NCBI GenBank assembly: GCA_965645245.1
Contig: OZ287087.1
Span: 1,054,001 to 1,118,000, forward strand
Direction: 5' to 3'
Length of the DNA: 64,000 bases
Source of the DNA: Massalongia carnosa
Taxonomy: Eukaryota
A program made the translations under genes and the position numbers. Below, piece by piece: positions 6,755-62,839 of this stretch (position 1 is its first letter; each line of letters begins with the position of its first letter). Below the pieces are notes generated by a model. That model worked only from the letters and a program-made list of their open reading frames with translations, made no database searches and had not been told where the DNA came from.

Positions 6755-6758
6755 CAAT

Positions 6759-7250
6759 TGTCAGTGCATAGAAGGAATAAGGGCTAAGCTAACTAAGCGG
6801 GGCTTAGTTCTACGGCTAGGCTTAGTCATATGGAAAGCAGTGAATCTGCGTTACGCGGCTGGTATCTACTGCCGAGAGTATAGTACGAGCGATCGAGATA
6901 TACGAGGATGTTCGTACGATTAGTGAGCGGATGGTACGATACAGTAAGCACAGTGTCCACGATACAGTCAGCACAGTGTCCACGATGCAGTCAGCAGAGT
7001 GTTTAGCCGGCTTATCCGGTAGGAGTAATGGGCGGTCAAGATAGTTACAGTATCAAGGGCCCAGAGGGTCAAGGGCTTCGGTCCGGGTATATAAGGAGGC
7101 TGCTCGAGGGAGATGCAATCTTCAACGATTAGTCTTCCGCTTTACCTACATACTTCTTTTAGTATATTAGTATAGCAAATCATTAGTGTCTTCACATTGT
7201 CACATATCCCTAGGCCTGGTGTCTGATAATCGCCAGGTCTGACTCTTACA
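6759..7250 (+). repeat. 3' LTR (492 bp) of family 1
   Basis: Matches 722-1213; similarity stops after ...CTTACA. Confidence 0.95.
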
Positions 7251-16563: not shown

Positions 16564-18234
16564 TTTATTTTTATTTTTTATCTATTAAGTGTATTCAACC
16601 TAAGGTTATGACACTAAACTATTTTAGGATATGTTTCTATATTACAAATAAATCAACCCTTTATAACCCATCTATGTATTGTCAATTTTTCCCCATTTTT
16701 ACTCCGTGTTAGTAACAAAATATAGTAATCGAAGAATATCGATTTTAAAATTTGTCTTTATAAGTTCGTGAATGTTTCAGCATAAATCGTTTCAGATTTT
16801 ACTGTTCGATCTCTCCCCAACCTCCAGTTTCGAAAATCTCGTCATCAAGCTGACCTAGTATCCCTTTTCTTGTCGCGATATGGTTATTGACAATGAATTT
16901 AATCAAAATGTCATTTCCGATTTTTGTATTAAACAACATGTTCAAGTTGATCGTAGTATCTATATTTTGTTTCATGTTTTGAATTTCATCGAAATAGTGA
17001 ATGCAATTCAATAACAGGTGTTCTGGCGTTTGTCGTTGATTGTATTGATTTGTGCAATTTGACGAATTATAATCTTTCAATCGCTGTAAATATGATCGAA
17101 AATAGCCGTGTCCGAATTTTAATTGCATAATAGTAGCAAATATCAATTTGGAACAGTTGTTTGATAAATAATAAAATCTCGATATGCCAGGTTTCATTTC
17201 GAATTTCTCGTAGTATTTGCCTTTTGATTTGCATTGTTGCCATTGATTCGTCCATGTGGTTAGCATATTTTGATTTATTTGATCTTTTACATAATCAAAT
17301 GTTATCGCCGAGGACTCGACTAGGATTTGATTATGGCCCGTCTTTGCTATTTTGTCTGCAATTTCGTTTTCGGTAATATTTGAATAACTCGGAACCCATT
17401 GCAAAATCACCTGAAAATTGCTTTCAAATAAGAGTTTTGCGAGCTTTCGAATTTGTCTGGCGAAAATATGATTTGTCAAGTTCTGAATTTCGTTTATCGC
17501 GTTTATACTATCAGAAAAAATCCAAATCGTTTTTTCTAAGTTCGATAAAATATTAGTATTCGACAATTTATAGACCCATTTCATTGCTTTTAAAATCGCA
17601 TGCAGTTCAGCATTTTTAATGCTTGACTGTTTGCTTAATTTCCAGCTTTTCGAAATCGTATGATACTTGATCAGACAATATTTTTCGATAAATCGATTAA
17701 ATATATTGATAATATTACTCCAATTCCTTATAATTGGCGCAAATGTGACTGCAGACGTTGCAAATTCGATTTTCGATCCATCTGTATAAAGTAAAACTCG
17801 GGATTTATCGGAGTTCATTGATTTAATTTGGTATAAGGTCAAATAATAACTTGATTTAGCAAATTCCTTTGTATTTTCGATTTGAAATTCAATTTTGCAA
17901 GGCGATTCCAGGGTTTAATAAAATGATTTGATTGTTCAAATTCATCAGTTTTGTGAACTATTTCGGAATCGGAATGAAGAACGCGAATTAGCTGACTAGG
18001 ATGTCGTTTATTTGTTTGTTTTTCGTCTTCGTTCCATTCGGCATATTTGTTGTTCCATAAACTTGTGTCAAAACCGATATTTTCGAATTTTATCGAATAT
18101 GTGTTTGGAATTCTTTGACAAATAGGGTTATTTTCGGCAATCTTCAATAATCGAATTGCGTATTTTTGATTTTTCATTAATAATCGAAGTTTAACTGGTA
18201 AAACATGTGATTCAATTTCCATTGCCTGAACAGG

Positions 18235-18441
18235 TGTCAGGGTCCTGGCCTGACCCGACATGCTCTGGTGGTCACGGGACAGCGTGACTCACCTAAGCAG
18301 TAGCGCGCGTCGCTTGACTGGCTAGCGCACCCACGGTAGATTATGTTTAGGAGTTCAGCGATGAGTATTCTTTTCTTTCCTTCCTTGTAGTTAAATTCTA
18401 GTTCATAGCTACTGAATAATATCAGGGTAAGCTGCCTGACA
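18235..18441 (+). repeat. 5' LTR (207 bp), family 3
   Basis: Matches 24613-24819 with 4 substitutions counted by eye. Confidence 0.97.
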
Positions 18442-18442
18442 T

Positions 18443-18453
18443 AATTTAACTAC
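18443..18453 (+). promoter_or_regulatory. Primer-binding site, self-priming (11 nt)
   Basis: AATTTAACTAC is the exact reverse complement of LTR GTAGTTAAATT at 18387-18397. Confidence 0.85.
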
Positions 18454-18637
18454 CTTTAATGCTTATTAGTACTCTTCCAGTCTTCTAGAACTTTCAGCAC
18501 ATTTAGAAAGGGACAACGACCTGCTCCTTTAGCTTTCCAGAACGACCACTAGTGAGAATTCGAGCTGGTCCTCTCTCCAGAACCTTTAGAACTTCTAGAA
18601 TCGAAAGACAGAGCTCTTTTACCTCCAGAACACAGTC

Positions 18638-23400: not shown

Positions 23401-24515
23401 CAAAAAGACGATTATACGAACCGCATACGTCACTCTCCACCGACGAATTAATGGACGCCATGTCTCGACGACTCTTCTCCTCGTATGGCTTTCCATTGTC
23501 AACGGTAAACGATCGAGGCAGTCAGCTGACTGCTCATCTGTGGAAAAGAATTTGTGAAAGATATGGAGTAAAGATAAAGTTCTCTTCAGCGCATCATCCA
23601 GAAACGGATGGTCAAACTGAGAATGCAAATAAAGTAATGAAGAACTACCTTCGATCATACATCAATTATGCTCAGGACAACTGGGTCGACTATCTTTCAG
23701 ATGCCGAGTTCGCCGTCAACAATCATGTTAACGTTTCGACAGGAATGACACCATATTTCGCAGATCACGGCTTTCATCCTCGTTCGGGAATAGAGCCTCC
23801 AGGAACATATGAAGAAAAGGGAAAAGCCGAGATACTTCATGCTGACAAAATAGTCGCTCGCCAGGAAGCAATGCGAGAATGGTTAAGAAATCAGCTAACA
23901 TGGGCCCAGGAAGAACAAACACGAGTTGCTAACAAAGATCGTCAACCGCACCCAGAATACAAAGTGGGCGACTTAGTGTACGTTAATGCTAAACATTTCG
24001 CATCGGAGCGTCCAAGTCGTTCCCTCGGGTTTAAAAACGTTGGTCCCTGGAAAATTGTTAGGATAATCGATAACAAGGCATATGAGCTTGACATACCACA
24101 GCATTTAAAGAATGTGGGACTCACCCCAATATTTCATCCATGGAAGTTGCATCTCGCTCCGTCCAATCCGTTCCCAGGGCAAGTACTGCCTCCCGGCCCA
24201 CCTCTCTTGATCACCGAGAACGATAAGGAGGTAACACATGAAGAGTGGGAAATCTTAGAGATAGTGGACTGTCGAGAGACAAGGAAATTTGGAGTACAGT
24301 ATAAGGCTACATATATTGGAAATTGGGACGAATGGAACGCTGACCCACCTTGGCAACCATGGACCGACTTCAGAAAGTCTATCGAAAAGGTTCTGCAATA
24401 TCATAGAGAACATCCTCGAAAACCGAAGGCGCCAGAGGACCTCACAGTGATGGATCAGACGATCGATAACGTCAGACCATCTACGGAAAGCGTAGATGGA
24501 CCCGATGAGGCTTAG
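20442..24515 (+). CDS. pol: Intact Pol of family 3 (PR, RT, RNase H, IN, chromodomain-like), -1 frame to gag
   Basis: 1330-aa ORF, open back to slippery GGGAAAA 20442-20448; LVDNGSE, YLDD, DSSD...ELLAI, GHPG...CSIC, NDRG, GPW, EWEILEIV. Confidence 0.95.
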   Translation, partial: GKSLVLYQNRDQGRLKKDVICEIGSAEMKTVRVSSCAVLDTEKKIEGKHLVFKTSIAGIKTRLLVDNGSEAKLIDESFARVNKLNTSKLETGVKLTLGNGEVAQLLTRTALVDVKIGDHQEQVLCYVAKLDVYAVILGDGWLQTHNPSIDWKKRIMKFNSADCLEMGCLSRGITCTEFAVGSRAKNRIGTKDDIEVLPVNAKHFFRMVRKKDHEGYLWTPREHKTFCATTTGAVISKDYDKFMKGKPEYSREELLKKIPSEYHSMIEVFMKHKADELPEHRKEDHEINLMDGKEPPYVRNYKPMSEQELEAVKKYIDEHMGKGFIRPSSSTAAAPVLLVRKPGGGLRFCVDYRALNAITVKNRYPIPLINETLGKLSQAKRFTKLDVITAFNRLRVKEGHEWLTAFNTRYGQFEYLVMPFGLCNAPGTFQSYINNSVREYLDVFCTAYLDDVLIYSDNKEEHSDHVLKVLKRLGERGLQVDIDKCEFSVTKVKYLGLIVTTEGIQMDSEKIEAILKWETAESVKDVQAFLGFANFYRRFISKFSQRTRSLTELTKGEQITTKSGKKITRYNVFTWTEDCKKAFEDLKEAFTTAPVLAHYDPSLEIWIEIDSSDFDTAGVLSQMHDGVLKPVAYFSKKMTPAECNYMIYDKELLAIIKSFEDWRPEAASAAPDQPIKVYTDHKNLEHFMTTKQLNRRQARWAEFLSEFNFKIMYRPGRQGEKPDTLTRRSQDLPKGFDDSRQQHQIQTLLQEHQLDDDVKKALSVIFCANTRTNDTDEEAEEPQAIEDDEEAQGQILNENPVKELGEDSEEDPSAKPLEELVEEAYEKDEVVQDIIAAKTRELRKLPSHLIKKGIKLAMGDLKVKDERLYVKDRLYVPDHEPLQLCLLQKHHEPPLQGHPGYKSMYQLLMENYFWFDMKDHCKRYAVNCSICRRSKSYNVKKQGLLNPLPIPNRKWTDVSLDFVEFLPECRRRNIVYQHILVIVDRLTKRRLYEPHTSLSTDELMDAMSRRLFSSYGFPLSTVNDRGSQLTAHLWKRICERYGVKIKFSSAHHPETDGQTENANKVMKNYLRSYINYAQDNWVDYLSDAEFAVNNHVNVSTGMTPYFADHGFHPRSGIEPPGTYEEKGKAEILHADKIVARQEAMREWLRNQLTWAQEEQTRVANKDRQPHPEYKVGDLVYVNAKHFASERPSRSLGFKNVGPWKIVRIIDNKAYELDIPQHLKNVGLTPIFHPWKLHLAPSNPFPGQVLPPGPPLLITENDKEVTHEEWEILEIVDCRETRKFGVQYKATYIGNWDEWNADPPWQPWTDFRKSIEKVLQYHREHPRKPKAPEDLTVMDQTIDNVRPSTESVDGPDEA

Positions 24516-24612
24516 CTTCGAGTAAGGGATTTTTCGTTTCTTTAGTCAAGAATTGGTTGAACGGAGCGAATTCTTCACGACTCCGAGACGTCGTCCATAG
24601 AAGGGGGGGTAG

Positions 24613-24819
24613 TGTCAGGGTCCTGGCCTGACCCGCCATGCTCTGGTGGTCACGGGACAGCGTGACTCACCTAAACAGTAGCGCGCGTCGCTTGACTGGC
24701 TAGCGCACCCACGGTAGATTATGTTTAGGAGTTCAGCGATGAGTATTCTTTTCTTTTCTTCCTTGTAGTTAAATTCTAGTTCATAGCTACTGAATAATAT
24801 CAGGGCAAGCTGCCTGACA
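24613..24819 (+). repeat. 3' LTR (207 bp), family 3
   Basis: Direct repeat of 18235-18441. Confidence 0.97.
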
Positions 24820-27027
24820 ACAGGTGTGGTTTTGAAAGTTCCTAAAATCTTTCGAATCATTTGATTTTGTAGGTTCTGAAATAGTTTTTCATATTTCTTT
24901 TGACTATTATACCAAATTTCTGAGCCTTAGTCCGAAATAGGAATAATGCATGACATATAGAGCTGTCTGCATGCGGTCGGTTTCAGACCCCATTCGGACT
25001 TCATCAAATTCTGAATTGCAAAAAACGATCGATTCGCAGAAGAGATCCGCGTTTCGACTTGTTTTTAGAAATTTAGTTTTCGGTCTAACCAGACGCCCAA
25101 CCATTTGACTACATTTTTCGGTTCTAGTACTGTACCGTTTGGTAATTCCAATGTGTCTTTCGATACATTTCTTGTCTTTTCGAAGTGAATCAGCTCGGAT
25201 TTATCGTCATCAAATTTGACATTATTCGATTAGGCCCAATCAAAAGCCGTTTTGACTATGATTTCGATTTCTTTGCAATTCTATTTTGCAGTTTTATTTT
25301 CGACATATATCGCAAAATCGTAAATAAAACTGGGAGAATGTGTATTGAATTTCATTCGTATTTTCGGAAACAAGTGACGAATGTAAATCAGAAATAGAAT
25401 AGGCGAGATTGTGGAGCCTTGTGGAATTCCTGACTCGACATAATATGTTTTGCTTAAATTTTCATCAAATATCAAATTGATCGATCGTTTTGTCATGAAT
25501 GCTTGACCTATTGAATTATTATGCGAGATAATTTCAGCTTTTTCATAACATTTAGCAGTTGATTAATCGAGACAAAGTCAAATGCGCCTTTGAAATCGAG
25601 TAATAATCATGATAAGACGTTTTTATTTCTATTTACAATTTCAATATCATAAACAACGTTCATTACTGCGTCAATTGCAGAATAATTTTTGCGTCCGCCC
25701 ATCTGTTCGATATGGAGTAAATTCGAATTTTCGCCGAAGAAGGCTAGTCGATGTGCAACGATTTTCTCAGCAATTTTACCAAGACAATTTAGTAATGTGA
25801 TAATTCGATATGTTTTTGGAAACGAATAGTCTGATTTATTAGGTTTTTTCAGAACTGCACCGAGTCCTGTCCGCCAGCATAACTAGCTAAGAATGATAAT
25901 AGAGTTGACATCTCCTTCGTGAAGTCTCTATCCCAGTTCTCGTTCATCTCACTGGTGCGTTTTACGGCCCAAGACTATTGATGAATTCTACGATTGGGGT
26001 GAACGACGTCCCTTTCGCCCAGGTCAAAACCAGTTCACTCCTTAAGCATATATCAAGGGCGAGTCTAGCCGTAGCCCATGCGCTGGCGAATCGACGGGGT
26101 CTCGTTACGAGCGAGATAGACATTCCCTGCTCTATATACACCGATATGCGCATACTGTCCTCTCGGGCTATGCATACGGTCTCCGTACGGTGGCCGCCAT
26201 TGCATACCACGCCTCACGGGTTTTTTACGCCCACTTCGCGTTATTCATAAAGGTCTCCCGTTTATGAACCGACCTTGTCTCGCAGGGATTTCGACCACTA
26301 TGCTCCTGACCAGGCAGTATAGTATCGATTTTCCGTCCCTACTAACCAAAACGAGTCGAGGACAACTCGGAGGGGTGCTCGTTTGAAATTCGTCTATTAG
26401 CTCAGGGCCTAGACTGTTATCAATTAACGGGTTCCTCGTATATTGCCCTCTTCTTGTCCCAAGGGTTTCCTATTTGATGACTATGTTGCCTCCACCATCC
26501 CCGGTACGACTCCAGCTCGGGCCGTTTTGCTCACGGTAGCCATCAATCGGATGGTTTTCATAACACAAATCCCTTGTATCGTGTAGGGTGTGACCCTACA
26601 CTATGTGTCTATATGTTTTATTTCTTTCAGCCGGAGGGCTCCGTGTTGTAGACGAAGGAGACCCGTGTGATAGACATAGCTGACCCGTGTCGTACATCTT
26701 TAGCTCTCAGCCGATGACTGCATGAAAGGAATTGAACCTTTAAGAGTATGACCGAACGTTGTTAATGAGGTCTATGAAAATCTTATTAACGAGGTCTTCG
26801 AGAACAATATTAACGAAGTTCCGCTGAACTTTTTTCATTCGTTTTGTGATCCATCGAGGTCTACCCGTGTCAAATCCACACTATGCCCGTGTCCAAATAA
26901 ATTATTTTCAGCTGATGACTGCTAGAAAGGACTTGAACCTCTAAAAATATGTACTCCGATATTAACGGGGTGCAGATCTGTCTTAACGAGCACCCGCAGA
27001 ACCCCCTTCACAGGGACGTGTTATTGA

Positions 27028-27177
27028 TTTGTGACTGTGTTTTTTGTGACTGTGTGTTTTGTGACTGTGTGTTTTTGACTGTGTGTTTGTGACTTTATGT
27101 TTGTGACTGTGTGCTTTGTGACTGTGTGCTTTGTACAACGTGTGATTGATGACTATGTGTTTTGTGACTCTGTGTTT
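27028..27177 (+). repeat. ~14-bp minisatellite (TGTGACTGTGTGTTT-like, ~10 units)
   Basis: Visible tandem; second copy at ~61023-61188. Confidence 0.9.
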
Positions 27178-27616
27178 TCCTCGATTTTATTTAACAGGCC
27201 GGGCCTATTAAATGGGATATTGTTATTCTGCTTCGAGATGGAGTTTTCTTGAGGTGACAGCATTCGCCCCGGTGCCTTTACGCGTTCTGTTGATCCCAGG
27301 TGATGACTGCATGGGGAGACTTGAACTCTCAGGAGCTAGAACGCGTGTCGACTGTGCCCGGGTGGGGGATGATGCGGCTCCTTTGGTCCACATCTTCTTC
27401 CAGCTGATGACTGCATGAAGGGACTTGAACCCTTAGAAGCATGGTGCTAAGACGCGCGCATTCTACCCCCCGGCGGTTGGCCTTCGTATCCTCTTCCGTA
27501 CGTACGTCTGCGACGCGTGTGAACGCGTTAAATTAGCATTGTTTTGATGCGAAGAAATAGGAGCAAATCTATATTTGACGGTCGCCCCACGGTGAGGCCT
27601 TTGGCGTCTCCGTGGT

Positions 27617-27761
27617 GAGGACCGATGGTGTAAAAGGAGGAGGACCGATGGTGTAGAAGGAGGACCGATGGTGTAGAAGGAGGAGGACCGATGGTGTAGA
27701 AGGAGGAGGACCGATGGTGTAGAAGGAGGAGGACCGATGGTGTAGAAGGAAGAGGACCGAT
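27617..27761 (+). repeat. 23-bp tandem repeat GGAGGAGGACCGATGGTGTAGAA (7 GGACCGAT cores)
   Basis: Visible tandem; 2 cores in copy B at 61627-61660. Confidence 0.95.
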
Positions 27762-28007
27762 GCTCACTTCATTCTTGATAAGTTTATAACATAAAGTGTC
27801 TTACATATGAAAACAAGTGAGCATGCAGTGTTGGTGCTTTTGTCGCGTAACTGTACAACCTGTTCTCGAGACAACAAAACTTCTTGGTGTTCATTTGAAA
27901 TTTAAGGTTACCGGTACCGTATACACTATTCTATTTTGGGTTTTTGCGATTTTCGTTGAACTGCCGACCAACAATCTGCTGAAACGAAGGGGAAAAACGT
28001 CTGAAAT

Positions 28008-43141: not shown

Positions 43142-43304
43142 TTTATTTTATTTTTTATTTATTCATTGAGTGTATTCAACATAAGGTTATGAGACAAAAC
43201 TATTTTAGGATATGTTTCTATATTACAAATAAATCAACCCTTCATAACCTATCTATGTATAGTCAATTTTTCTCCATTTTTACTCCGTGTTAGTAATAAC
43301 CTAT
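43142..43304 (-). mobile_element. LINE-A 3' UTR and tail remnant
   Basis: Antisense tail plus the same 3' UTR as 43305 onward. Confidence 0.85.
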
Positions 43305-43706
43305 TTTTTAATTTTTTTTATTTATTCATTAAGTGTATTCAACCTAAGGTTATGACACTAAACTATTTTAGGATATGTTTCTACATTACAAATAAATCAA
43401 CCATTTATAACCCATCTATGTATTGTCAATTTTCCACATTTTTACTCCGTGTTAGTAACAACCTATAGTAATCGAAGAATATCGATTTTAAAATTTGTCT
43501 TTGTAAGTTCGAGAATGTTTCAGCATAAATCGTTTCTGATTTTACTGTTCGATCTCTCCCCAACCTCCAGTTTCGAAAATCTCGTCATCAAGCTGACCTA
43601 GTATCCATTTTCTTGTCGTGATTTTGTTGATTTGATTTGATTTGATTATTCTTACGCCGTTGTGTCACCGGCCGAAGGCCGGCCCATGCGGGAGATGCTA
43701 TATAAG

Positions 43707-49822: not shown

Positions 49823-50253
49823 GGTAAACGTAGACGTGATGAAAGATCAAGAATACGGGCATTTAAAACTGGTGATGATGATCTAGGAGGATTGATCCTA
49901 AGCATTTGTTTAAATGAAGGTGCTGAGTTCCGAGGTAATTCAGTAGTAGATGCCCGTTTTCATGATTATTTGGAGGGCTGTTTGGGGGGCTGTTTTGAAG
50001 GCTGTTTAGGAGGCTGTTTTCGAGGCATGATGGCTGGAATAACTACGTTGAAAGTTCATATAAACGACAATCAAAAGGATATCATTAACCGTACTATCCT
50101 ATAGACTGTAAAGGGCATTGTGAAGGGGAGGAAGGCTATTAACTACTGCACCAAATTCTGGTGTTTGGTCCAATTCTGTCGCTTATTTTTTTTTTTTTTT
50201 TTACCGCGCAGTTTCGGGGTTCAAAGTTCGGCACACCATTTTGCAAACGGGTG

Positions 50254-53200
50254 TAACTGGTAAAACATGTGATTCAATTTCCATCCCCTGAACAGGTGTG
50301 GTTTTGAAAGTTCCTAAAATCTTTCGAATCATTTGATTTTGTAGGTTCTGAAATAGTTTTTCATATTTCTTTTGACCATTATACCAAATTTCTGAGCCGT
50401 AGTCCGAAATAGGAATAATGTATGACATATAGAGCTGTCTGCATGCGGTCCGTTTCAGACCCCATTCGGATTTCATCAAATTCTGAATTGCAAAAAACGA
50501 TCGATTCGCAGAAGAGATCCGCGTTTCGACGTATTTTTTGAAATTTAGTTTTCGGTCTAACCAGACGCCTAACCATTTGACTACATTATTCGGTTCTAGT
50601 ATTGTCCCGTTTGGTAATTCCAATGTGTCATTCGATACATTTCTTGTCTTTTCGAAGTGAATCAGCTCGGATTTATCGTCATCAAATTTGACATTATTCG
50701 ATGCGGCCCAATCAAAGGCCGTTTTGACTATGATTTCGATTTCATTGCAATTCTGTTTGGCAGTTTTATTTTCGACATATATTGCAACATCGTCAATAAA
50801 ACTGGGAGAATGTGTATTGAATTTCATTCGTATTTTCGGAAACCAGTGACGAATGTAAATCAGAAATAGAATAGGCGAGATTGGTGAGCCTTGTGGAATT
50901 CCTGATTCGACATAATATGTTTTGATTAAATTTTCATCAAATATCAAATTGATCGATCGTTTTGTCATGAAATGCTTGACCCATTGAATTATTATGCGAG
51001 ATAATTTCAGCTTTTTCATATTATTTAGCAGTTGATTAATCGAGACAAAGTCAAATGCGCCTTTGACATCGAGTAATAAACATGATAAGACGTTTTTATT
51101 TCTATTTGCAATTTCAATATCATGAACAACGTTCATTACTGCGTCAATTGAAGAATGATTTTTGCGTCCGCCCACCTGTTCAATATCGAGTAAATTCGAA
51201 TTTTCGCCGGAGTAGGCTAGTCGATTTGCAACGATTTTATCAGCAATTTTACCAAGACAATTTAGTAATGTGATAATTCGATATGATTTTGGAAACGAAT
51301 AGTCCGATTTATTAGGTTTTTTCAGAACTGCACCGAGTCCTGTCCGCCAGGATAACGGGTGATAACCGATTCGAATGAATTTCGAATAAATCATGAAAAA
51401 CACGTTTTTCAACGATTGAAACGATTTTTGAACAATTGTAAAATTGATTGCATCAGGTCCACATGCTTTCTTCGGATTAAATAAACTAATCGCATTTTTC
51501 AACTCGTTTTCGGTCAAATCTGGCCAATTATCATCATTTTCGCTGTATTGATTTGATAAATCTTCCTCATTATCGTCAATAAATGGGTTTTTTGTATACA
51601 TTGCTGACACAAATGCATCGCATTTGTCATCAAACTGTACATTTAGCTTGTTTTCATGTAGAATCGGCGGTATTTTTTCGAATATGCGCGGTTTAGTGTA
51701 TTTATACGCGGTAAATACATCTTTATTTGCTGCATTTTCTAGAAAAGTCAGCCATGTTTGTTGTTTTGCTTTTCGAATTGCTTGAAAATACTCGATTCGA
51801 CTATGTTTAAACGTCCGATGACTAAAATTGGACGGATAATTCTTCCATTCTCGACGATGTCTGCACATGGTTTTTCGAAGTTTGGTTAAATCTTGCGACC
51901 ACCAATTTTTCGATTTTGCACAAATTTTCGTTTTCGGAATAAACATTTCAGCCGCGTTTTTGATAACGTTTTGCAAATATATCGCTGATTCGTCGAATTG
52001 ATGATTATTCAATAAATTTGAACTTGTGATTCGTAGATCGTTGAATTTTCGTCTAGATACTTCGCGAATTTATTCCAATCGGCTTTATTGCAATTGTATT
52101 TATACGATAATGCGGTTGCATGTGACTTCAAGTTTTTGAAAGATGAGATTAGTTCAAATCGGATGACTTCATGATCAGAACCTGTGACTGCGTTTTCATC
52201 GATTGACCAATTTGTAATTGCATATTCGATTTTAGAATTTGCAAAAGTTAAATCAATAACAGATGAAGAACTTCTAGAATGGGCGTAGTATGTACATAAG
52301 TCAGGTTTGTTTATCAAACTACACCTGTTTAATTTCAACCATTTGACAAGATTTTCTGATCGAATTCCTTGTTGAATTTTCGAATTCCACCAGTTATGAT
52401 GTGCATTGAAATCTCCACAGATGACGAATTGATCAGTTGATTAAGGTTGTAATTGGATTAAAAGTCGATCGATCGTGTATGTTTCTCGATCACTTTGACT
52501 TTTTTCGTTATAAATATTGAAAATCTGCACTTTTCGAACTTCATCAATTGTAATTTCAATAATTTGCATATCGGAATCGTCAATAAGATCCGTTCTAGGC
52601 GTGCATTGCAGTTTGGAATTGCCATTTGTGATAAATATAGCTACTCTCGAGCGATAAGTCGCTATTTTTGGCATAATACATGTAAATGACGGATGTGATA
52701 TTGTTTTTTGATCTCGTGTCCATGGTTCCTGAAACAAAACAATATCAATTTGATTTGATAAAGCATATTCCAAACACGATATCATTGCATTCGTTGACTT
52801 TGCAAAATTATATTGAATAAATTTAACATTTTGTGTATTTTCGATGTTTATCAACGAATGCTGTCCTGCCATTACAAAGCGGCTAATTCGCTAGTCGATT
52901 TACGAACATTTAACGATATAACCATTTCACAATTTTCATCATTTGATTGATGATTCTTGTTGCAATTCGCGCATTTGACGACGACGTGTGCACAAGCAAT
53001 TTTTGACTTGCATGTTGTGCAATCATGATTGCGTGTTTCATGGTTTTGCGCACCTATGCTGCATTTCGCTTGACTTTTGCATTGATAATGATTGTGTCCA
53101 AATTTTTGACAATTAATGCATTGTGTGTTTGGACAAACGGAGGTAAATATTTCCGTGTCACAATGTCGGCCCGCGATATTGACTTCTTTTAACGCGTTCA

Positions 53201-53398
53201 AGGCCATATTTCGATCATTGAATGTCAAAACACCGGATGATTTTATCTTGTTACGACGATCACGTGCTAGCCATCTGGGAACATCGCATAATTGCATGTT
53301 CGAATTGAACTTTTTAATTTCGTCTTGCAAATATTGCATGTTTTCATCAAATGTCGCAATATTTACACCGTGTGCGACGACTTTGAACCACGATTCGT
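50254..53398 (-). mobile_element. LINE-A internal fragment (ORF1 C-terminus, ORF2 APE-RT)
   Basis: ORFs 52872..53462, 52441..52872, 52009..52338, 50201..52012; TAATG overlap at 52874-52870. Confidence 0.92.
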
Positions 53399-54762
53399 AC
53401 TGTCCTCTCGGGCTATGCAGACGGTCTCCGTACGGTGGCCGCCATTGCATACCACGCCTCACGGGTTTTTTACGCCCACTTCGCGTTATTTATAAAGGTC
53501 TCCCGTTTATGAACCGACCATGTCTCGCAGGGATTTCGACCACTATGCTCCTGACCAGGCAGTATAGCATCGATTTTCCGTCCCTACTAACCAAAACGAG
53601 TCGAGGAAAACTCGGAGGGGTGCTCGTTTGAAATTCGTCTATTAGCTCAGGGCCTAGACTGTTATAAATTAACGGGTTCCTCGTATATTGCCCTCTTCTT
53701 GTCCCAAGGGTGTCCTATTTGATGACTAGGTTGCCACCACCATGCCCGGTACGACTCCGGTTCGGGCCGTGTTGCTCACGGTAGCCATTAATCGGATAGT
53801 TTTCATAACCCAAATCCCTTGTATGGTGTAGGGTGTGACCCTAACATCAACTCTCTACTGGCAAAGATAACCTATCGAAACACAAGTACCGCAACTTTTG
53901 GTACTCTAAAACTTTTACAGTCAATTAAATTTCTCTTTCTCAGTCATTTGAGCTCCTCCAGAGCAAAACCAGACTCAGATTGAGTGTAGGAGAGCTCTAG
54001 CAAAGCTCCAGCAGAGATTTTCTGCTGGTCGCACGCGACAGACGTGATAAAGCGCGCTCAAGAAGTTATAAAAAACACCAAATACCAACAATATCACCAA
54101 AAATCGCTCTTTTTTCTCACTTTCTTCTGTTCTGTTGTCGCATTACCCTCAATTATTACTACAAGAATTATCTACAAAAAATATCTACTGTCGCGGTACT
54201 GTACAACAACTGTCGCGACGACCAACTTTTTTGAAGTTCATTTCTCATTTAAGGTTACGGGAACTTCCGCAAGCTCAAATATTCACAGTATATTTCACGT
54301 ATAATTTCTGCATATACCATTTTAGGCTTTATCGATCTCCATTGAACGGCCGGTCAACAGATCACTGAAAAGAAGGGGAAAAACGTCTGGAATAGGATTA
54401 TACCAAAGATCCTATTTCAGATTAATCAGAATAGGAAGTCTCTTATTATCTTACCTTGCCTTAGATCTATTTTTATCGCAAAAAAGCAAAAAAAAACCGT
54501 TCATTATTTTCAACTATTGTAGTGTCTGGTAAAGGGTTAAATAAGATTTACTGCCTAAGCGAGGAACGGTCTATTTTAACCCGATTAGGATTTATTTGAC
54601 GAGTTATTGTCATATAAATAGGGATAGGAAAGCAAGAGTCGTTAGACCTGTAAATTGGTGTAAATTTCTATTCTGATTAGTACGTCCGGGGAACATCAGA
54701 ATAAATTATTTGGTGGTGATAAAAGGGATATTGAAAAGGCATATCGATTTATTTATTAAATC

Positions 54763-56336
54763 ATGTTCAATCCGGTACTCCCTAGGACTCGACGAATTAT
54801 ATCGAGAGCCTCCCCGGGAACACCCCTGAGCACTCCTCAAAACCCTCCCCAAATGGAATCTCCGGGGCTCTCGTCAGTAGGACTTACAGAAAAATCGCCT
54901 GTACTTGACGAGCCTATGGATCAATCACATGAATATTCGTCCGCCCCGACTACGCCGACCCCAAAAGCAACCAAATTCCCATCTGGACAATTTACTACCA
55001 ATCTACCCTTGCCATCGTTAAATTCTAATAGGGATTAAGCCCGCCCATCAAACGTAACAAACGAAAAACATTCGACGAACGAGTAGAGGAAAGCCAAGAA
55101 GCAATCAATCGAGCACAATCGATTGGATTACTCAAAACGGCTAAAACCGCGTTATTGAAGTCATTTGTCTTAGATCAAAATCCAGAAACAGCAATAGTCA
55201 TTGATAATGTCAATTCCTTATTGACAAAAAAATCAATTAATATCAAAACAACACTAGACATGATGAATTGGAAATTGGACAAGGTAATTGATCAGACTAG
55301 TAATCGAACCTCAGAAACAACGCGAAAATCGACTCGGGTTCAACAAGTCAATATGACTGAAAATCCAAATAAAGTCGTCAACACGAACGCACGAAAGGAA
55401 ACCGCCGGGGTTACGAGTACAAAGGTCAATAACACGCCTCCATCCTGGAGTCAAATGCTTGGAAAAGCAACTGCGAATTCCGAAAATTGGACCACTGTTT
55501 CCAGATCGAAAAATTCGAGTCAAACCTCGAACAAACTCGACAAAACCGACGAATTAAATGCAATCAAACTCAGACGACTGATAATTACAGCAAAAATTCA
55601 AATCGGCGATATCGATTCATTGAAACTTCGAGATCAAATCAACGCGCAATTCAGCAACGCGAAGTTAGATATCGTAATCAACACGGTCGAAAAATCGAAA
55701 ACCGGTCAGAATATCGTTCTCACTACTAGTTCGAAAAACACTGCTGCAGAATTGTTGGAAAACAAATCTATATGGGAACATATGTTCGATGCACAAAGAA
55801 TTCGAAAAGACGAATCCTGGTTTAAAGTGATCGCACATGGAGTAAATATTGCAACGTTTGATCAAAATATGCAATTTTTGCAAAATGAAATCCAGAAATT
55901 CAACCTTAACATGGAATTATGCGATTTACCCAGATGGCTAGCGCGAGATCGCGAAAATAAAGTCAAATCTTCGGTCGTTTTGACTTTTAACGATCGAAAT
56001 CAGGCCTTAAACGCGTTAAAAGGCGTAAATATCGCGGGAAAACACTGTGACACGGAAATATTTACTTCCATTCGTCCGAATACACAAGGTATTAATTGTC
56101 AAAAATTCGGACACAAGCATTATCAGTGTCGAAACAAATCAAAATGCAATATTTGTGCACAAAATCATGAAACACGTAATCATGAATGCGTAACACGCAA
56201 ATCGAAAACTGCGTGTGCACACGTTGTTGTGAAATGTGCAAACAGCAATAAAAATCATCAATCAAATGATGAACATTGTGAAATGTTTACTGCATTAAAT
56301 CCACGAAAATCGGCTGACGAATTATCCGCCTTATAA
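54763..56336 (+). pseudogene. LINE-A ORF1, frameshift near 55031
   Basis: ORFs 54763..55038 and 55155..56336 together match the 15826 and 29445 ORF1 copies; several knuckle cysteines mutated. Confidence 0.9.
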
Positions 56337-59300
56337 TGGCAGGACAGCATTCGTTGGCAAATATAGAAAATACTCACAATGTCAAATTTATTCAACACAA
56401 CTGTGGAAGGTCAACGAATGCAATGATTTCGTGTTTGGAATATGCTTTATCAAATCAAATTGATATTGTTTTGTTTCAGGAACCATGGACACGAGATCAA
56501 AAAACAATATAACATCCGTCATTTACATGCATTATGCCGAAAATAGCAACTTATCGCTCGAGAGTAGCTATATTTGTCACAAAATGCAATCCCAAACTGC
56601 AATGCACGCCTAGAACGGATCTTATTGACGATTCCGATATGCATATTATTGAAATTACAATTGATGAAGTTCGAAAAGTGCAGATTTTCAATATTTATAA
56701 CGAAAAAAGTCAAAATGATCGAGAAACATACACGATCGATCGACTTTTAATCAAATATCAACCTACATCAACTAATCAATTCATCATATGTGAAGATTTC
56801 AATGCACATCATAACTGGTGGAATTCGAAAATTCAACATGCAATTCGATCAGAAAATTTAGTCAAATGGTTGAAAATAAACAAATGTAGTTTGATAAACA
56901 CACCTGATTTATGCACATTCTACGCCCATTCTGGAAGTTCATCATCTGTTATTGATTTAACATTTGCAAATTCCAAAATCGAAAATGCACTTACAAACTG
57001 GGCAATCGATGAAAACGCAGTCACAGGTTCAGATCATGAAGTCATCCGATTTGAACTAATCGCATCTTTCAAGAATTTGACGTCACATGCAACCGCATTA
57101 TCGAATAAATACAATTGTAATAAAGCCGATTGGAATAAATTCGCGAAGTTTCTAGACGAAAATTCAATCAACTACGAATCAAAAGTTCAAAGTTTATTGA
57201 ATAATCATCAATTCGACGAATCAGCGATATATTTGCAAAACGTTATCAAAAACGCGGCTGAAATGTTTATTCCGAAAACGAAAATTTGTGCAAAATCGAA
57301 AAATTGGTGGTCGCAAGATTTAACTGAACTTCGAAAAACCATTTGCAGACATCGTCGAGAATGGAAGAATTATCCGTCCGATTTTAGTCATCGGACGTTT
57401 AAACATAGTCGAATCGAGTATTTTAATGCAATTCGAAAAGCAAAACAACAAACATGGTTGACTTTTCTAGAAAATGCAGCGAATAAAGACGTGTTTACCG
57501 CGTATAAATATACTAAACCGCGCATATTCGAAAAAATGCCGCCGATTCTACATGAAAATAAGCTTAATGTTCAGTTTGATGACAAATGCGATGCGTTTGT
57601 GTCAGCAATGTACACAAAAAACCCATTTATAGACGATAATGTCGAAGATTTACCAAATCAAGACAGCGAAAATGATGATAATTGGCCAGATTTGACCGAA
57701 AACGAGCTGCAAAATGCGATTAATTTATTTAATCCGAAGAAAGCATGTGGACCTGATGCAATCAATATTACAATTGTTCAAAAATCGTTTCAATCGTTGA
57801 AAAACGTGTTTTTCATGATTTATTCGAAGTTCATTCGAATCGGTTATCACCCGTTATGCTGGCGGACAAGACTCGGTGCAGTTCTGAAAAAACCTAATAA
57901 ATCAGACTATTCGCTATCAAAATCATATCGAATTATCACATTACTAAATTGTCTTGGTAAAATTGCTGAGAAAATCGTTGCAAATCGACTAGCCTACTTC
58001 GGCGAAAATTCGAATTTACTAGATATCGAACAGATAGGCGGACGCAAAAATCATTCTGCAATTGACGCAGTAATGAACGTCGTTCATGATATCGAAATTG
58101 CGAATCGAAATAAAAGCGTTTTATCCTGTTTATTACTCGATGTCAAAGGCGCATTTGACTTTGTCTCGATTAATCAACTGCTAAATGTCATGAAAAAGCT
58201 GAAATTATCTCGCATAATAATTCAATGGGTCAAGCATTTCATGACAAAACGATCGATCAACTTGATATTCGATGAATACAAAAGCAAAACATATTATGTC
58301 GAATCAGGAATTCCACAAGGTTCACCAATCTCGCCTATTCTATTTCTGATTTACATTCGTCACTTGTTTCCGAAAATACGAATGAAATTTAATGCACATT
58401 CTCCCAGTTTTATTGACGATGTTGCAATATATGTCGAAAATAAAACTGCAAAACAAAATTGCAAAGAAATCGAAATCATAGTCAAAACAGCTTTTGATTG
58501 GGCCGCATCGAATAATGTCAAATTTTATGACGATAAATCCGAGCTGATTCACTTCGAAAAGACAAGAAATGTATCGAAAGACACATTGGAATTACCAAAC
58601 GGGACAGTACTAGAACCGAAAAATGTAGTCAAATGGTTTCGCGTCTGGTTAGACCGGAAACTGAATTTCAAAAAACACGTCGAAACGCGAATCTCTTCTG
58701 CGAATCGATCGTTTTTTGCAATTCAGAATTTGATGAAATCCGAATGGGGTCTGAAACCGACCGCATGCAGACAGCTCTATTTGTCATGCATTATTCCTAT
58801 TTCGGACTATGGCTCAGAAATTTGGTATAATGGTCAAAAGAAATATGAAAAACTATTTCAGAACCTACAAAATCGAATGATTCGAAAGATTTTAGGAACT
58901 TTCAAAACCACACCTATTCAGGCGATGGAAATTGAATCACATGTTTTACCAGTTAAACTTCGATTATTAATGAAAAATCAAAAATACGCAATTCGATTAT
59001 TGAAGATTGCCGAAAATAACCCTATTTGTCAAAGAATTCCAAATACATATTCGATAAAATTCGAAAACATCGGTTTTGACACTAGTTTATGGAACAACAA
59101 ATATGCCGAATGGAACGAAGACGAAAAACAAACAAATAAACGACATCCTAGTCAGCTCATTCGCGTTCTTCATTCCGTTTCCGACATAGTTCACAAAACT
59201 GATGAGTTTGAACAATCAAATCATTTTATTAAACCTTGGAAATCGCCGTGCAAAATCGAATTTCAAATCGAAAATACAAAGGAATCTGCTAAATCAAGTT

Positions 59301-60348
59301 ATTATTCGACCTTATCCAAAATTCAATCAATGAACTCCGATAAATCCCGAGTTTTACTTTATACGGATGGATCAAAAATCGAATTTGCAACGTCTGCAGT
59401 CACATTTGCGCCAATTATGAGGAATTGGAGTAGTATTATCAATAATTTTGATCGATTTATCGAAAAAGATTGTCTGATCAAGTATCATACGATTTCGAAA
59501 AGCTGGAAATTAAGCAAACAGTCAAGCATTAAAAATGCTGAACTGCATGCAATATTACAAGCAATGAAATGGGTCTATAAATTGTCTAATACTAATATTT
59601 TATCGAACTTGGAAAAAACGATTTGGATTTTTTCTGATAGTATAAACGCGATAAACGAAATTCAGAACTTGAAAAATCATATTTTCGCAAGACAAATTCG
59701 AAAGCTCGCAAAACGCTTATTTGAAAGCAATTATCAGGTGATTTTGCAATGGGTTCCGAGTCATTCAAATATTACCGAAAACGAAATTGCAGACAAAATA
59801 GCAAAGACGGGCCATAATCAAATCCTAGTCGAGTCCTCGCCTATAACATTGATTATGTAAAAGATCAAATAAATCAAAATATGCTAACCACATGGACGAA
59901 TCAATGGCAACAATGCAAATCAAAAGGCAAATACTACGAGAAATTCGAAATGAAACCTGGCATATCGAGATTTTATTATTTATCAAACAACTGTTCCAAA
60001 TTGATATTTGCTACTATTATGCAATTAAACTTCGGACACGGCTATTTTCGATCATATTTACATCGATTGAAAGATTATAATTCGTCAAAATGCTCAAATC
60101 GATGCAATCAACGACAAACGCCAGAACACTTGTTATAGAATTGCATTCACTATTTCGATGAAATTCAAAACATGAAACAAACCATCGATACTACGATCAA
60201 CTTGAATATGTTGTTTAATCCAAAAATCGGAAATGACATTTTGATTAAATTCATTGTCAATAACAAAATCGCGACTAGAAAATGGATACTAGGTCAGCTT
60301 GATGACGATATTTTCGAAACTGGAGGTTGGGGAGAGATCGAACAGTAA
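56336..60348 (+). pseudogene. LINE-A ORF2 (APE-RT-RNaseH-CCHC), nearly intact; stop near 56510, frameshift near 59850, stop at 60136
   Basis: 1108-aa ORF 56534..59860 with GSDH, PQGSPISP, FIDD, YTDGS, AELHAI, IFSDS, WVPSH, NEIAD. Confidence 0.95.
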
Positions 60349-61721
60349 AATCAGAAACGATTTATGCTGAAACAGTTACGAACTTACAAAGATAAATTGT
60401 AAAATCGATAATTTTCGATTACTATAGGTTGTTACTAACACGGAGTAAAAATGGGGAAAAATTGACGATACATAGATGGGTTATAAAGGGTTGATTTATT
60501 TGTAATATAGAAACATATCCTAAAATAGTTTAGTGTCATAACCTTAGGTTGAATACACTTATTGAATAAATAAAAAAAAAAGGGTGTGACCCTACACTAT
60601 GTGTCTATATGTTTTATTTCTTTCAGCCGGAGGGCTTCTTGTTGTAGACGAAGGAGACCCGTGTGACAGACATAGCTGACCCGTGTCGTAAGTCTTTAGC
60701 TCTCAGCCGATGACTGCATGAAAGGACTTGAACCTTTAAGAGTATGACTGAACGTTGTTAACGAGGTCTATGAAAATCTTATTAACGAGTCTTCGAGAAC
60801 AATATTAACGAAGTTCCGCTGAACTCTTTTCATTCGTTTTGTGATCCATCGAGGTCTACCCGTGTCAAATCCACACCATGCCCGTGTCAAAATGCATCAT
60901 TTTCAGCTGATGACTCCTAGAAAGGACTTGAACCTCTAAAAATATGTACGCCGATATTAACGGGATGCAGATCTGTCTTAACGAGCCCCCGCAGAACCCC
61001 GTTCACAGGGACGTGTTATTAATTTGTGACTGTGTTTTTTGTGACTGTGTGTTTTGTGACAGTGTGTTTTGTGACTGTGTGTTTTTTGCCTGTGTGTTTG
61101 TGACTGTATGTTTGTGACTATGTACTTTGTGACTTTGTGCTTTGTACAACTTGTGATTGATGACTATTTGTTTTGTGACTCTGTGTTTTCCTCGATTTTA
61201 TTTAACAGGCCGGGCCTATTAAATGGAATATTGTTATTCTGCTCCGAGATGGAGTTTTCTTGAGGTGACAGCATTCGCCCCGGTGTCTTTACGCGTTCTG
61301 TTGATCCCAGCTGATGACTGCATGGGGAGACTTGAACTCTCAGGAGCTAGAACGCGTGTCGATTGTGCCCGGGTGGGGGATGATGCGGCTCCTTTGGTCC
61401 ACATATTCTTCCAGCTGATGACTGCATGAAGGGACTTGAACCCTTAGAAGCATAGTGCAGGGACGCGCGCATTCTAACCCCTGGCTGTTGGCCTTCGTAT
61501 CGTTTTCCGTACGTACGTCTGCGACGCGTGTGAACTCGTCAAATTAGCATTGTTTTGATGCGAAAAGATAGGAGCAAATCTATGTTTGTCGGTCGCTCCA
61601 CGGTGAGGCCTTTGGCGTCTCCGTGGTGAGAACCGATGGTGTAGAAGGAGGAGGACCGATATATAATAATGTGATAGTAAATGTGATAGTAAATGTGATA
61701 TTAATTTAAATGATGCGGTGG

Positions 61722-62839
61722 TAGTAACAACCTATAGTAATCGAAGAATATCGAATTTACAATTTGTCTTCGTAAGTTCGTGAATGTTTCAGCATAAATC
61801 GTTTCTGATTTTACTGTTCGATCTCTCCCTAACCTCCAGTTTCGAAATTCTAGTCATCAAGCTGACCTAGTATCTATTTTCTTGTCGCGATTTAGTTATT
61901 GACAATGAATTTAATCAAAATGTCATTTCCGATTTTTGTATTAAACAACATATTCAAGTTGATCGTAGTATCGATATTTTGTTTCATGTTTTGAATTTTA
62001 TCGAAATAGTGAATGCAATTCAATAACAAGTGTTCTGGCGTTTGTCGTTGATTGCATCGATTTGTGCATTTTGACGAATTATAATCTTTCAATCGCTGTA
62101 AATATGATCGAAAATTGCCGTGTCCGAATTATAATTGCATAATAGTAGCAAATATCAATTTGGAACAGTTGTTTGGTAAATAAAAAAATCTCAATATGCC
62201 AGGTTTCATTTCGCATTTCTCGTAGTATTTGCCTTTTGATTTGCATTGTTGCCATTGATTCGTCCATGTGGTTAGCATATTTTGATTTATTTGATCTTTT
62301 ACATAGTCAAATGTTATCACTGAGGACTCGACTAGTATTCGATTATGTCCCGTCTTTGCTGTTTTGTTTGCAATTTCGTTTTCGGTAATTTTCGAATGAC
62401 TCGGAATCCATTGCAAAATCACCTGATAATTGCTTTCAAATAAGCGTTTTGCGAGCTTTCGAATTTGTCTTGCGAAAATATGATTTGTCAAGTTCTGAAT
62501 TTCATTTATCGCGTTTATGCTATCAGAAAAAATCCAAATGATTTTTTCTAAGTTCGATAAAATATTAGTATTCGACAATTTATAGACCCATTTCATTGCT
62601 TGTAAAATCGCATGCAGTTCAGCATTTTTATTGACTGTTTGCTTAATTTCCAGCTTTTCGAAATCGTATGATACTTGATCAGAGAATCTTTTTCGATAAA
62701 TCGATTAAAATTATTGATAATACTACTCCAATTCCTTATAATTGGCGCAAATGTGACTGCAGACGTTGCAAATTCGATTTTCGATCCATCTGTATAAATT
62801 AAAACTCCGGATTTATCGGAGTTCATTGATTTAATTTTG
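61722..62839 (-). mobile_element. LINE-A 3' fragment (RNase H to mid 3' UTR)
   Basis: ORFs 62593..62826, 62129..62596, 61892..62092. Confidence 0.9.

Follow-up and report, generated by a model that had tools for sequence, protein, structure and literature searches.

Our analysis argues, at a probability of about 0.7, that the RNA of a non-coding repeat in the window (the whole 64,000-nt stretch of DNA analysed) makes up the 5′ portion of MINE/WEIRD-type chimeric retroposons, and that the modules repeated within it are structural domains of this RNA. Both window copies, as read from the genomic sequence, are joined at their constant end to a 5′-truncated LINE in the same orientation. Of the 18 loci with a recognisable terminus, 17 have LINE-like coding similarity directly beside this end (8 found by a first LINE comparison, 2 more via Pfam and 7 more in a later check), and it is on the minus strand every time; the exception is locus L006, where there is none. 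The junctions fall at ORF1 residue 261 and at ORF2 residues ∼261, 443, 448, 576, 633, 662–664, 736 and 785, at least nine positions in all, and the fused LINE parts share only 24–37% protein identity with the window LINE. Chimera B runs from 61717 to 43312 on the minus strand and is flanked by ATAGGTTRTTACTAAC, duplicated with 1–2 mismatches; it is the one chimera for which the target duplication is resolved, and the sense 5′ side of chimera A abuts another LINE. In the mechanism that we propose, the LINE reverse transcriptase would copy the LINE RNA from its 3′ end, quit this template at varied internal points and then switch to the 3′ end of the element RNA, so that the chimera would be inserted as a single unit with a single target duplication.

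The module-bearing element and its copies

The host of the modules is, on the evidence of its copies, a non-coding repeat of 1.5–2 kb that is non-autonomous and mobile, which agrees with the kind of element in which the sequence-only reading had placed them. That reading had put the repeat at 26689–27461; the feature is indeed there, but the repeat is larger, and in copy B it is split in two (Table 1). Its constant left terminus is C(C/T)AAGGAT, the sense 3′ end reading ...ATCCTTGG, and within the conserved 3′ domain a multi-helix domain (26455–26612) has a predicted minus-strand fold with covariation, in which 17 of 45 predicted pairs are compensatory. The modules number 1–5 per element and lie in its sense 5′ half, where the units that carry them are tandemly duplicated (183-nt period; unit size 100–185 nt).

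Several other classes were considered for the element and rejected. Its tblastx similarity extends over all frames and includes stop codons, which speaks against a coding reading. Against an LTR reading, its ends are not TG..CA, copies in pairs were not seen, and the 208-bp LTRs belong to Gypsy-2 itself. DNA transposons and Helitrons were discarded on the basis of six full-length copies with neither TIRs nor a TSD of their own and of ends unlike TC...CTRR. Telomerase RNA, box C/D snoRNA, SECIS and k-turn were dropped for want of their defining partner motifs and of an Rfam match.

Table 1. Positions of modules, element copies and associated LINE sequences in the window (CM, covariance model)
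Feature	Position	Strand	Remarks
Module 1, copy A	26704..26746	−	43-nt core; outer stem to ∼26689–26751; CM 67.9 bits
Module 2, copy A	26905..26947	−	pattern and CM, 67.4 bits
Module 3, copy A	27293..27335	−	CM 65.1 bits; 9-bp outer stem ACGCGTTCT/AGAACGCGT at 27281–27346
Module 4, copy A	27397..27439	−	pattern and CM, 72.6 bits
Module 1, copy B	60700..60742	−	pattern and CM
Module 2, copy B	60900..60942	−	pattern and CM
Module 3, copy B	61304..61346	−	pattern and CM
Module 4, copy B	61408..61450	−	pattern and CM
Non-coding element, copy A	25887..27762	−	sense 3′ end at ∼25887; sense 5′ side ends within 23-nt tandem repeats at 27762
Conserved 3′ domain of the element RNA	25887..26612	−	66–76% identity across fungal loci; non-coding; contains hairpin 26583–26603
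Tandem repeats (23 nt) close to the sense 5′ end	27600..27762	−	other families have repeats of 28 nt and 34 nt here
5′-truncated LINE, chimera A	24812..25883	−	LINE nt 4010–5080; joined to sense 3′ end of copy A; continues at 16568–18237 past a nested Ty3/gypsy element
LINE 3′ part and A-rich tail, chimera A	16568..18237	−	LINE nt 5067–6736
Element copy B, 3′ piece	53398..53843	−	corresponds to copy A 26153–26598
Element copy B, 5′ piece with four modules	60581..61717	−	sense 5′ end of the chimera at 61717
Later full-length LINE insertion splitting copy B	53844..60580	+	target duplication AGGGTGTGACCCTA at 53830–53843 and 60581–60594
5′-truncated LINE joined to copy B	50251..53397	−	LINE nt 1967–5115; continues at 48894–49488 and 43312–43628, with a nested LINE of another family in between
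Target-site duplication of chimera B, left	43289..43304	.	15–16 nt; inside the 3′ UTR of the target LINE
Target-site duplication of chimera B, right	61718..61733	.	15–16 nt

The sense strand of the element RNA

The orientation of the fused LINE parts makes the window minus strand the sense strand of the element, and we infer from the genome that the RNA is transcribed from this strand and where its ends lie. With the minus strand as sense the RNA would read UCAUCAG, and CUGAUGA would occur only on the antisense. The wobble pairs point the same way: on the plus strand the 70 distinct modules (see below) hold 56 A·C or C·A cells and 23 G·U or U·G cells, and since A·C on the plus strand corresponds to a wobble in a minus-strand RNA, the count favours the minus strand by 56 to 23. 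A count of T-stem wobbles made without the model alignment again comes out for the minus strand, by 31 to 13. The sequence-only reading had taken the plus strand for the RNA and had seen the G–U wobbles as favouring it; the latter was based on few cells and is reversed in the larger set, and the former is overturned by the orientation of the LINE parts. In one family the background substitutions show little strand asymmetry (G>A 103, C>T 96, T>C 55, A>G 36). Mutation bias may contribute to the wobble asymmetry, and many of its cells are of common ancestry.

Comparison with MINE and other chimeras

The MINE elements of Magnaporthe grisea, with their WEIRD part, are reportedly also treated in Fudal et al. 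2005. As described by Gogvadze et al. 2007 (PMC2104539), a MINE consists of a full-length, 1.1-kb, non-coding and expressed WEIRD RNA joined at 28 sites to a 5′-truncated MGL LINE, with direct repeats of 10–20 bp. The chimeras found here share this architecture, as their 5′ part is likewise a full-length non-coding RNA (∼1–2 kb) whose constant end meets a 5′-truncated LINE of the same orientation at many LINE positions, with one target duplication around the whole (15–16 nt in chimera B) and with solo copies almost absent among the 18 examinable loci. Unlike WEIRD, for which other genomes were reported in 2007 to hold no similar sequence (PMC2104539), the window family is found in many fungal contigs, and the two are likened by architecture, not by sequence. 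Two published 20-nt WEIRD primers gave no match at ≤5 mismatches, a result with little bearing on distant homology. The window family further differs in its covarying T-loop modules, its structured 3′ domain and its 5′ tandem repeats, none of which figures in the description of WEIRD given in that source (PMC2104539).

The same source describes a WEIRD-MgSINE-MGL chimera, in which a LINE template jump led onto a SINE RNA, as well as the mammalian U6 snRNA–L1 chimeric retropseudogenes, in which a truncated LINE cDNA gains a cellular or parasitic RNA at its 5′ end by template switching (PMC2104539). The latter resemble our chimeras in their varied LINE junctions and in the one target duplication around the whole; in contrast, U6 is a short host snRNA of known function, whereas the element RNA is long, seems to occur mainly in chimeras and carries repeated structured modules. 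Two other fungal candidates, the Helenus TRIMs (PMC10886601) and Eg-R1 of Blumeria (PMC6022598), were set aside because their architecture, as far as these publications set it out, does not match the element.

The modules are repeated, covarying RNA folds

Scanning the window with CAGCTGATGACTGCATG at ≤3 mismatches yielded exactly eight matches, all on the plus strand (26708, 26909, 27297, 27401, 60704, 60904, 61308 and 61412), where 0.09 are expected by chance and eight were reached in 0 of 100 shuffles. Extending the pattern through the hairpin returned the identical eight sites (0.00 expected). These are the positions claimed in the sequence-only reading, and the CCCG(G)TG motif that it described before each module is present as well. 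Beyond the window, a stricter first pattern had no match among metagenome or viral contigs; a relaxed pattern located the module in 46 metagenome loci, for each of which ∼1.5 kb of flank was available, and had no match among the viral contigs. A covariance model search found 124 module instances in the 46 loci, 70 of them distinct. The flank of one of these loci contains a fungal-specific transcription-factor domain. The element family is present in many fungal contigs, and it also occurs in sequencing runs of at least five coded organisms; in the contigs of four sequencing runs its copies are numerous (2598 pieces in run X1) but nearly identical, and are too alike for covariation.

In sense orientation a module consists, in order, of P1, a single U, an RRRRG-UUCAAGU-CYYYY hairpin, a 4-nt joiner (CNYG), CAGUCAUCAGCUG and P1′, with P1 rich in pyrimidines and P1′ rich in purines. 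The hairpin has 5 bp, the 7-nt loop UUCAAGU and a G–C closing pair, and P1 is usually extended by a longer outer stem that differs from module to module. In the 70 distinct modules the loop letters and the 13 nt of CAGUCAUCAGCUG are nearly invariant, and the latter possibly form a 4-bp mini-hairpin, CAGU/GCUG. The joiner is palindromic in some modules (CAUG/CUAG), but as a dimerisation site it is not general, as joiners across families read CUUG, CACG, CCUG and others.

The paired positions behave as expected of conserved helices. In the eight window modules 94% of the cells pair, compared with 25–61% when the partners are slid, and the inner stems (AAAGG/CCTTT, AAAGG/CCTCT, GGGAG/CTCTC and AAGGG/CCCTT) vary in the compensating fashion noted before, double-sided changes being found in 6 pairs. 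In the 70 distinct modules 91.0% of the cells pair, compared with 33.0–53.7% in six slid controls, both sides are changed in 10 of 12 pairs, and 0 of 500 shuffles matched the observed values. All four P1 pairs and all five P3 pairs covary; P2 has one varying pair only. RNAalifold, applied to 42 minus-strand sequences that MAFFT had aligned without gaps, arrived independently at the same three helices, with 9 of 13 pairs compensatory. Taken together, the genomic copies, gathered in a covariance model as had been proposed from the sequence alone, indicate that the modules are repeated RNA folds kept by compensatory change, with a three-way-junction-like shape, and the earlier suggestion of such a repeated fold is well supported by the covariation.

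The thermodynamic signal of a single module is weak (z from −3.2 to +1.0). Of the outer stems claimed for the window, those of modules 1 and 3 and that of module 4 in copy A form in the predicted folds, while the stem of module 2 is absent from the minimum-energy folds of both copies. In module 2 of copy A, private changes at 26899/26900 weaken the outer stem, and most run contigs have other letters at this place. Without gaps, P1 extends past its 4 bp by 6.5 of 10 positions, compared with 5.2 in mismatched controls, an excess that is small because the outer stems are bulged.

Putative role of the modules

The hairpin corresponds letter for letter to what we take to be the T-arm of tRNA, with its 5-bp stem, UUCAAGU loop and G–C closing pair, and the sense strand carries the letters of a pol III B-box, GGTTCAAGTCC. 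The loop is constant in all its seven letters, a stricter pattern than the tRNA consensus. The modules differ from tRNA in having no cloverleaf, acceptor arm or anticodon arm; ARAGORN found 0 tRNA genes in the window and the 46 loci, and there was no match to the Rfam tRNA model. Moreover, the long insertion stands 3′ of the T-arm look-alike, so that the sense order is the mirror of a tRNA minihelix, and a simple mimic of a tRNA substrate is unlikely.

We tentatively propose that the modules are binding sites for a highly conserved factor and that this binding serves the hitchhiking. Such a partner is suggested by loop letters that stay nearly invariant while the fused LINE parts have diverged to the low identity given above. 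Candidates would be the LINE ribonucleoprotein or else some protein or surface able to recognise a tRNA by its T-arm or elbow; binding would stabilise the element RNA and hold it near the reverse transcriptase, and tandem duplication of the 100–185-nt unit would multiply the binding sites.

A broader reading, which we offer as speculation and consider rather unlikely in its entirety, is that these elements are a widespread, undescribed class of fungal retro-parasite that spreads by template-switch hitchhiking and of which WEIRD is a member. Their structured RNA, with its repeated T-arm or elbow mimics, would dock on a conserved surface (the ribosome or translation machinery near the nascent LINE protein, tRNA-handling proteins or the LINE particle) and so become the preferred second template of the LINE reverse transcriptase. 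WEIRD and MINE have so far been known from one fungus, reportedly without relatives, and the same architecture now appears in many fungal contigs, with a strongly conserved covarying module and a structured 3′ domain. The modules, their invariant loops and the defined 3′ end offer handles on how one particular RNA comes to be chosen by a LINE reverse transcriptase for its second template. For annotation, the architecture explains many LINE copies with a seemingly unrelated non-coding 5′ end, and repeats without target duplications of their own.

Alternative readings of the modules

The modules might instead act as DNA, the 100–185-nt units being promoter or TFIIIC-binding monomers that provide each new copy with an internal promoter, comparable to the 5′ monomers of mouse L1. 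The pol III B-box consensus matches GGTTCAAGTCC on the minus strand, and GTTCAAGTC is almost invariant in the 70 distinct modules. The tandem duplication of the units in the sense 5′ half would suit such monomers, as would the motifs that accompany the modules at fixed distance (YGTTMAKA and ACAYRGG, each in 38 of 62, compared with 9% and 7% of background windows), and a retroposon of this kind would presumably need an internal promoter. However, a protein site on DNA needs no complementary stems, yet all P1 and P3 pairs covary, also outside the B-box, and the wobble asymmetry indicates a folded single strand. Of the features of a tRNA or SINE only the T-arm/B-box part was found: A and B boxes spaced as in a tRNA are absent, nothing resembling an A-box was recognised and ARAGORN saw no tRNA-like gene. 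We therefore regard a role as DNA in place of the RNA fold as improbable, although both roles could be combined, as in tRNA genes. Runs of five or more T occur on the sense strand in 5 of 14 elements, and T-runs are not clearly avoided.

Functionless relics, namely pieces of tRNAs or of tRNA-derived SINE heads that earlier template jumps caught and that were then carried along and duplicated, are a still less credible source of the modules. The T-arm likeness and the precedent of the WEIRD-MgSINE-MGL jump would fit such an origin. Relics decay, yet here the pairing is kept by compensation across families whose other sequence is 66–76% identical, the loops and CAGUCAUCAGCUG hardly vary, and no cloverleaf, acceptor stem or anticodon arm was found. 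These observations are compatible with a module that derives from a tRNA and is still functional.

We give almost no credence to a self-cleaving plus-strand ribozyme of the hammerhead type, whether variant, minimal or dimeric, as in retrozymes or Penelope-like elements, since only 2 of the 70 distinct modules have the full core letters in the register proposed by the sequence-only reading, and Rfam, including its hammerhead models, gave no ribozyme match (at gathering score in the window and 12 loci, at E ≤ 10 in 26400–27800 and at E ≤ 1 in 6 loci). The resemblance is real in that CUGAUGA occurs in 39 of the 70, the module has a three-helix look in a non-autonomous retroelement, window module 2 can be written as CUGAUGA-N6-GAAA-stem-UC, and the 6-nt linker of the window copies contains short palindromes. 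This linker is, as had been remarked, all that stands in for stem II in the window modules; no helix forms there in any fold, stem II is absent from all 70, and most families have a non-palindromic linker. The positions that would correspond to A13, A14 and A15.1 form Watson–Crick pairs that covary and are hence not invariant as a hammerhead needs. A dimeric ribozyme or retrozyme fares no better, as the element has no terminal direct repeats and no tandem monomers of the retrozyme kind, and no LTRs were seen around the 46 loci, which lie on separate contigs (up to 551 kb) or overlap at one contig place, with no pair of copies a few kb apart. The plus strand is, moreover, antisense to the element, and the tempting ribozyme-like CUGAUGA beside the hairpin lies on this antisense strand.

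Module conservation and fold

Eight sites in the window match the 17-mer CAGCTGATGACTGCATG with at most 3 mismatches, all on the + strand, where 0.09 are expected by chance, and a longer pattern including the hairpin returns the same eight sites at an expectation of 0.00; the module positions of the sequence-only reading were thus exact. The repeat it described does hold the modules, but its span was drawn too small, as element copy A reaches leftward to about 25887 by homology to other loci. The eight cores align without gaps across 43 nt, with a structure that, written on the + strand, runs P1 (4 bp), CAG[CUGAUGA]CUG, a 4-nt joiner, P3 (5 bp, loop ACUUGAA), one A and P1'. The compensating stem changes reported earlier hold up, as 94% of cells pair vs 25–61% with partners slid, and three P1 pairs and three P3 pairs are changed on both sides. 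Folding energies of single modules are unremarkable (z –3.2 to +1.0), and a covariance model of the eight cores, run with filters off, detected no further module in the window (next best E = 0.05).

The strict module pattern had no match in metagenome or viral contigs. Leaving the P3 stem free gave 46 metagenome loci, many with 2–4 matches, and again none in viral contigs. The carriers include fungi, as a fungal-specific transcription-factor domain is encoded in the flank of one locus. The covariance model found 124 modules in the metagenome loci, always clustered on one strand, with 70 distinct sequences. Among the latter 91.0% of cells pair vs 33.0–53.7% in slid controls, 4/4 P1 pairs and 5/5 P3 pairs covary, and none of 500 shuffles reached the observed values, so that the covariation expected by the sequence-only reading is borne out over more copies. 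The outer P2 pair is CG in 56 of these modules, UG in 5, GC in 2 and UA in 2. One pattern match, L033, lies inside an amidase gene, has a poor model score of 23.6 bits and is probably a chance match outside the family.

Element–LINE chimeras and the sense strand

LINE coding sequence adjoins the constant end of the element, always on the window's minus strand and with varied LINE start positions. With the window LINE proteins as queries, these starts fall at ORF2 residues ~261, 443, 448, 576, 633, 662–664, 736 and 785 and at ORF1 residue 261, the window junctions themselves lying at ORF2 residue ~448 (copy A) and ORF1 residue 261 (copy B). Pfam adds an RNase H-like match beside the constant end in one further locus and an endonuclease match in another, and tblastx against the window's second LINE family identifies a LINE part in seven more. 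Of the 18 loci whose terminus is recognisable, 17 have a LINE part beside it, the sole exception being L006, where none was found. At locus L013 a single strand carries, in order, a module, the conserved domain, the terminus ...GTCGTTGGC and LINE ORF2. In several metagenome loci the LINE part is closer to the second LINE family than to the abundant one.

Chimera B, in which element copy B is joined to a 5'-truncated LINE, lies in the 3'UTR of another LINE, its target, and the two halves of that target overlap by 15–16 nt. As one 15–16 nt duplication flanks the whole chimera, element and LINE part entered as one retrotransposition event.

In the model alignment 56 wobble cells are A.C on the + strand (G.U on the minus) vs 23 of the reverse kind, and a T-stem count made without this alignment also favours the minus strand (31 vs 13); background substitutions are nearly strand-symmetric in the L004 family. 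These counts agree with minus as the sense strand, as inferred from the LINE parts, and overturn the earlier view that G-U wobbles favour a + strand RNA.

The module as RNA

On the minus strand the module reads YYYY-U-RRRRG-UUCAAGU-CYYYY-CNYG-CAGUCAUCAGCUG-RRRR. For 42 minus-strand sequences in a structure-blind alignment, RNAalifold predicts three helices (P1, the hairpin and a CAGU/GCUG mini-hairpin); 9/13 pairs are compensatory and G-U pairs are frequent. In every letter the hairpin agrees with a tRNA T-arm and, as DNA, it matches the B-box consensus. However, the order of the module's parts is the mirror of tRNA order; no cloverleaf was found around it in the window or the related loci, nor any tRNA gene in the window. 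In the neighbouring minus-strand domain 17 of the 45 predicted pairs are compensatory, and from this covariation beside the modules the RNA as a whole looks structured.

In the main rival reading the modules act as DNA, as B-box or promoter monomers. Such a role leaves the covariation unexplained, and it could coexist with one at the RNA level. Avoidance of T-runs on the sense strand, as for a pol III transcript, is not clear, with T5+ present in 5 of 14 elements.

A ribozyme is very unlikely. The sequence-only reading had seen a hammerhead-like core, and CUGANGA does occur in 39/70 distinct homologous modules, but GAA is in register in 10/70, all core letters are present in only 2/70 and stem II in 0/70. 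The covariation that backs the fold contradicts a hammerhead, as the would-be A13, A14 and A15.1 are ordinary Watson–Crick pairs that vary. Nor did any Rfam model, hammerheads included, match at gathering score in the whole window or 12 related loci, or at E up to 1 in 6 related loci; 26400–27800 searched at E up to 10 gave only a chance snoRNA match (E = 9.3).

A possible second template for LINE reverse transcriptase

The sequences show that the modules keep their pairing, that minus is the sense strand, that the junction end is constant while the LINE junctions vary, and that one chimera has a target duplication. We infer in addition a mechanism in which LINE reverse transcriptase would take element RNA by preference as its second template and the modules would serve the life cycle of that RNA, with duplication of module units adding binding sites. 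Module loop letters are almost invariant and the fused LINE proteins are only 24–37% identical to the window's LINE, which favours, as a candidate mechanism, recognition of the T-arm-like hairpin by a conserved host partner or deeply conserved surface. The element's junction end is kept across families (sense strand, ...ATCCTTGG) and is a candidate for the 3' end that accepts the template switch.

MINE/WEIRD of Magnaporthe has the same architecture as these chimeras. MINE is described as a 5'-truncated MGL LINE joined to the full-length WEIRD RNA, which is 1.1 kb long, non-coding and expressed; the fusions occur at 28 different sites with 10–20 bp flanking repeats and with no solo WEIRD copies, and the authors explain MINE by a template switch of the LINE reverse transcriptase (PMC2104539). 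Two primers published there had no match at up to 5 mismatches. A GCC*A/T site motif is reported on the LINE side in Magnaporthe. This kind of chimera is already in print; within a small survey confined to the literature, a MINE-like family across many fungal contigs appears undescribed, as do the element's covarying T-loop module and structured 3' domain.

Element anatomy and window setting

The element is homologous over its whole length across loci. A ~700-nt region conserved at 66–76% identity is non-coding, with similarity in all frames and stop codons, and beside it stand 1–5 module units followed by tandem repeats of 23, 28 or 34 nt. Two motifs flank the units at fixed distance, each in 38/62 modules vs 9% and 7% of background windows. 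The L004-family element is ~1.95 kb, with one end constant and the other common to 7 copies and earlier in others; no terminal inverted repeats or target duplication of its own were found in these copies. Their differences are almost all transitions (G>A 103, C>T 96, T>C 55, A>G 36; transversions 14), a pattern that looks like repeat-induced point mutation (RIP) in that fungus. In six full-length copies (L004, L018, L019, L029, L032, L037) the DNA past the sense 5' end is strikingly AT-rich (TATA-like) and the other flank is of ordinary composition, which could reflect a preferred target or DNA degraded by RIP.

The window holds retrotransposons nested in one another: Ty3/gypsy elements, and LINEs that encode endonuclease, RT and RNase H domains (Table).

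Table. Coordinates of the element copies, chimeric insertion and neighbouring retrotransposons in the window
Feature	Position	Strand	Remark
Element copy A	~25887–27762	minus
Junction end, copy A	25887–25894		ATTCTTAG
Structured domain	26455–26612	minus
Tandem repeats between modules 1–2 and 3–4	27025–27180, 61020–61190		imperfect, GTGACTGTGTGTTT
Element copy B	53398–53843 + 60581–61717	minus
Full-length LINE splitting copy B	53844–60580		14-nt target duplication AGGGTGTGACCCTA
Chimera B	61717 to 43312	minus	element, LINE nt 1967–6736, A-rich tail (LINE map of window)
Target duplication of chimera B	43289–43304 + 61718–61733		ATAGGTTRTTACTAAC, 1–2 mismatches
Second-family LINE	43629–48893	minus	ORF2 43707–47273; nested in LINE tail of chimera B
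Ty3/gypsy element	1–7250 (part in window)		LTRs 1–1213 / 6038–7250; gag 1255–2532; pol + chromodomain 2757–6281
Second Ty3/gypsy element	18234–24819		nested in LINE part of chimera A; 208-bp LTRs 18234–18441 + 24612–24819, 98% identical
Perfect 212-bp tandem duplication in second Ty3/gypsy	19259–19470 + 19471–19682

Contigs of public runs hold many near-identical copies of the repeat, and at several positions where copies A and B differ (26696, 26731, 27300) most or all contigs compared read copy B's letter, including ACTTGAA and CAGCTG. The tandem-repeat tract between the module pairs shows length variants in contigs of other runs. The LINE pieces flanking the second-family LINE overlap by 13 nt (LINE nt 6419–6431), probably its target duplication. 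The LTRs of the first Ty3/gypsy element are 100% identical over the 1213 nt contained in the window, which points to a very recent insertion.
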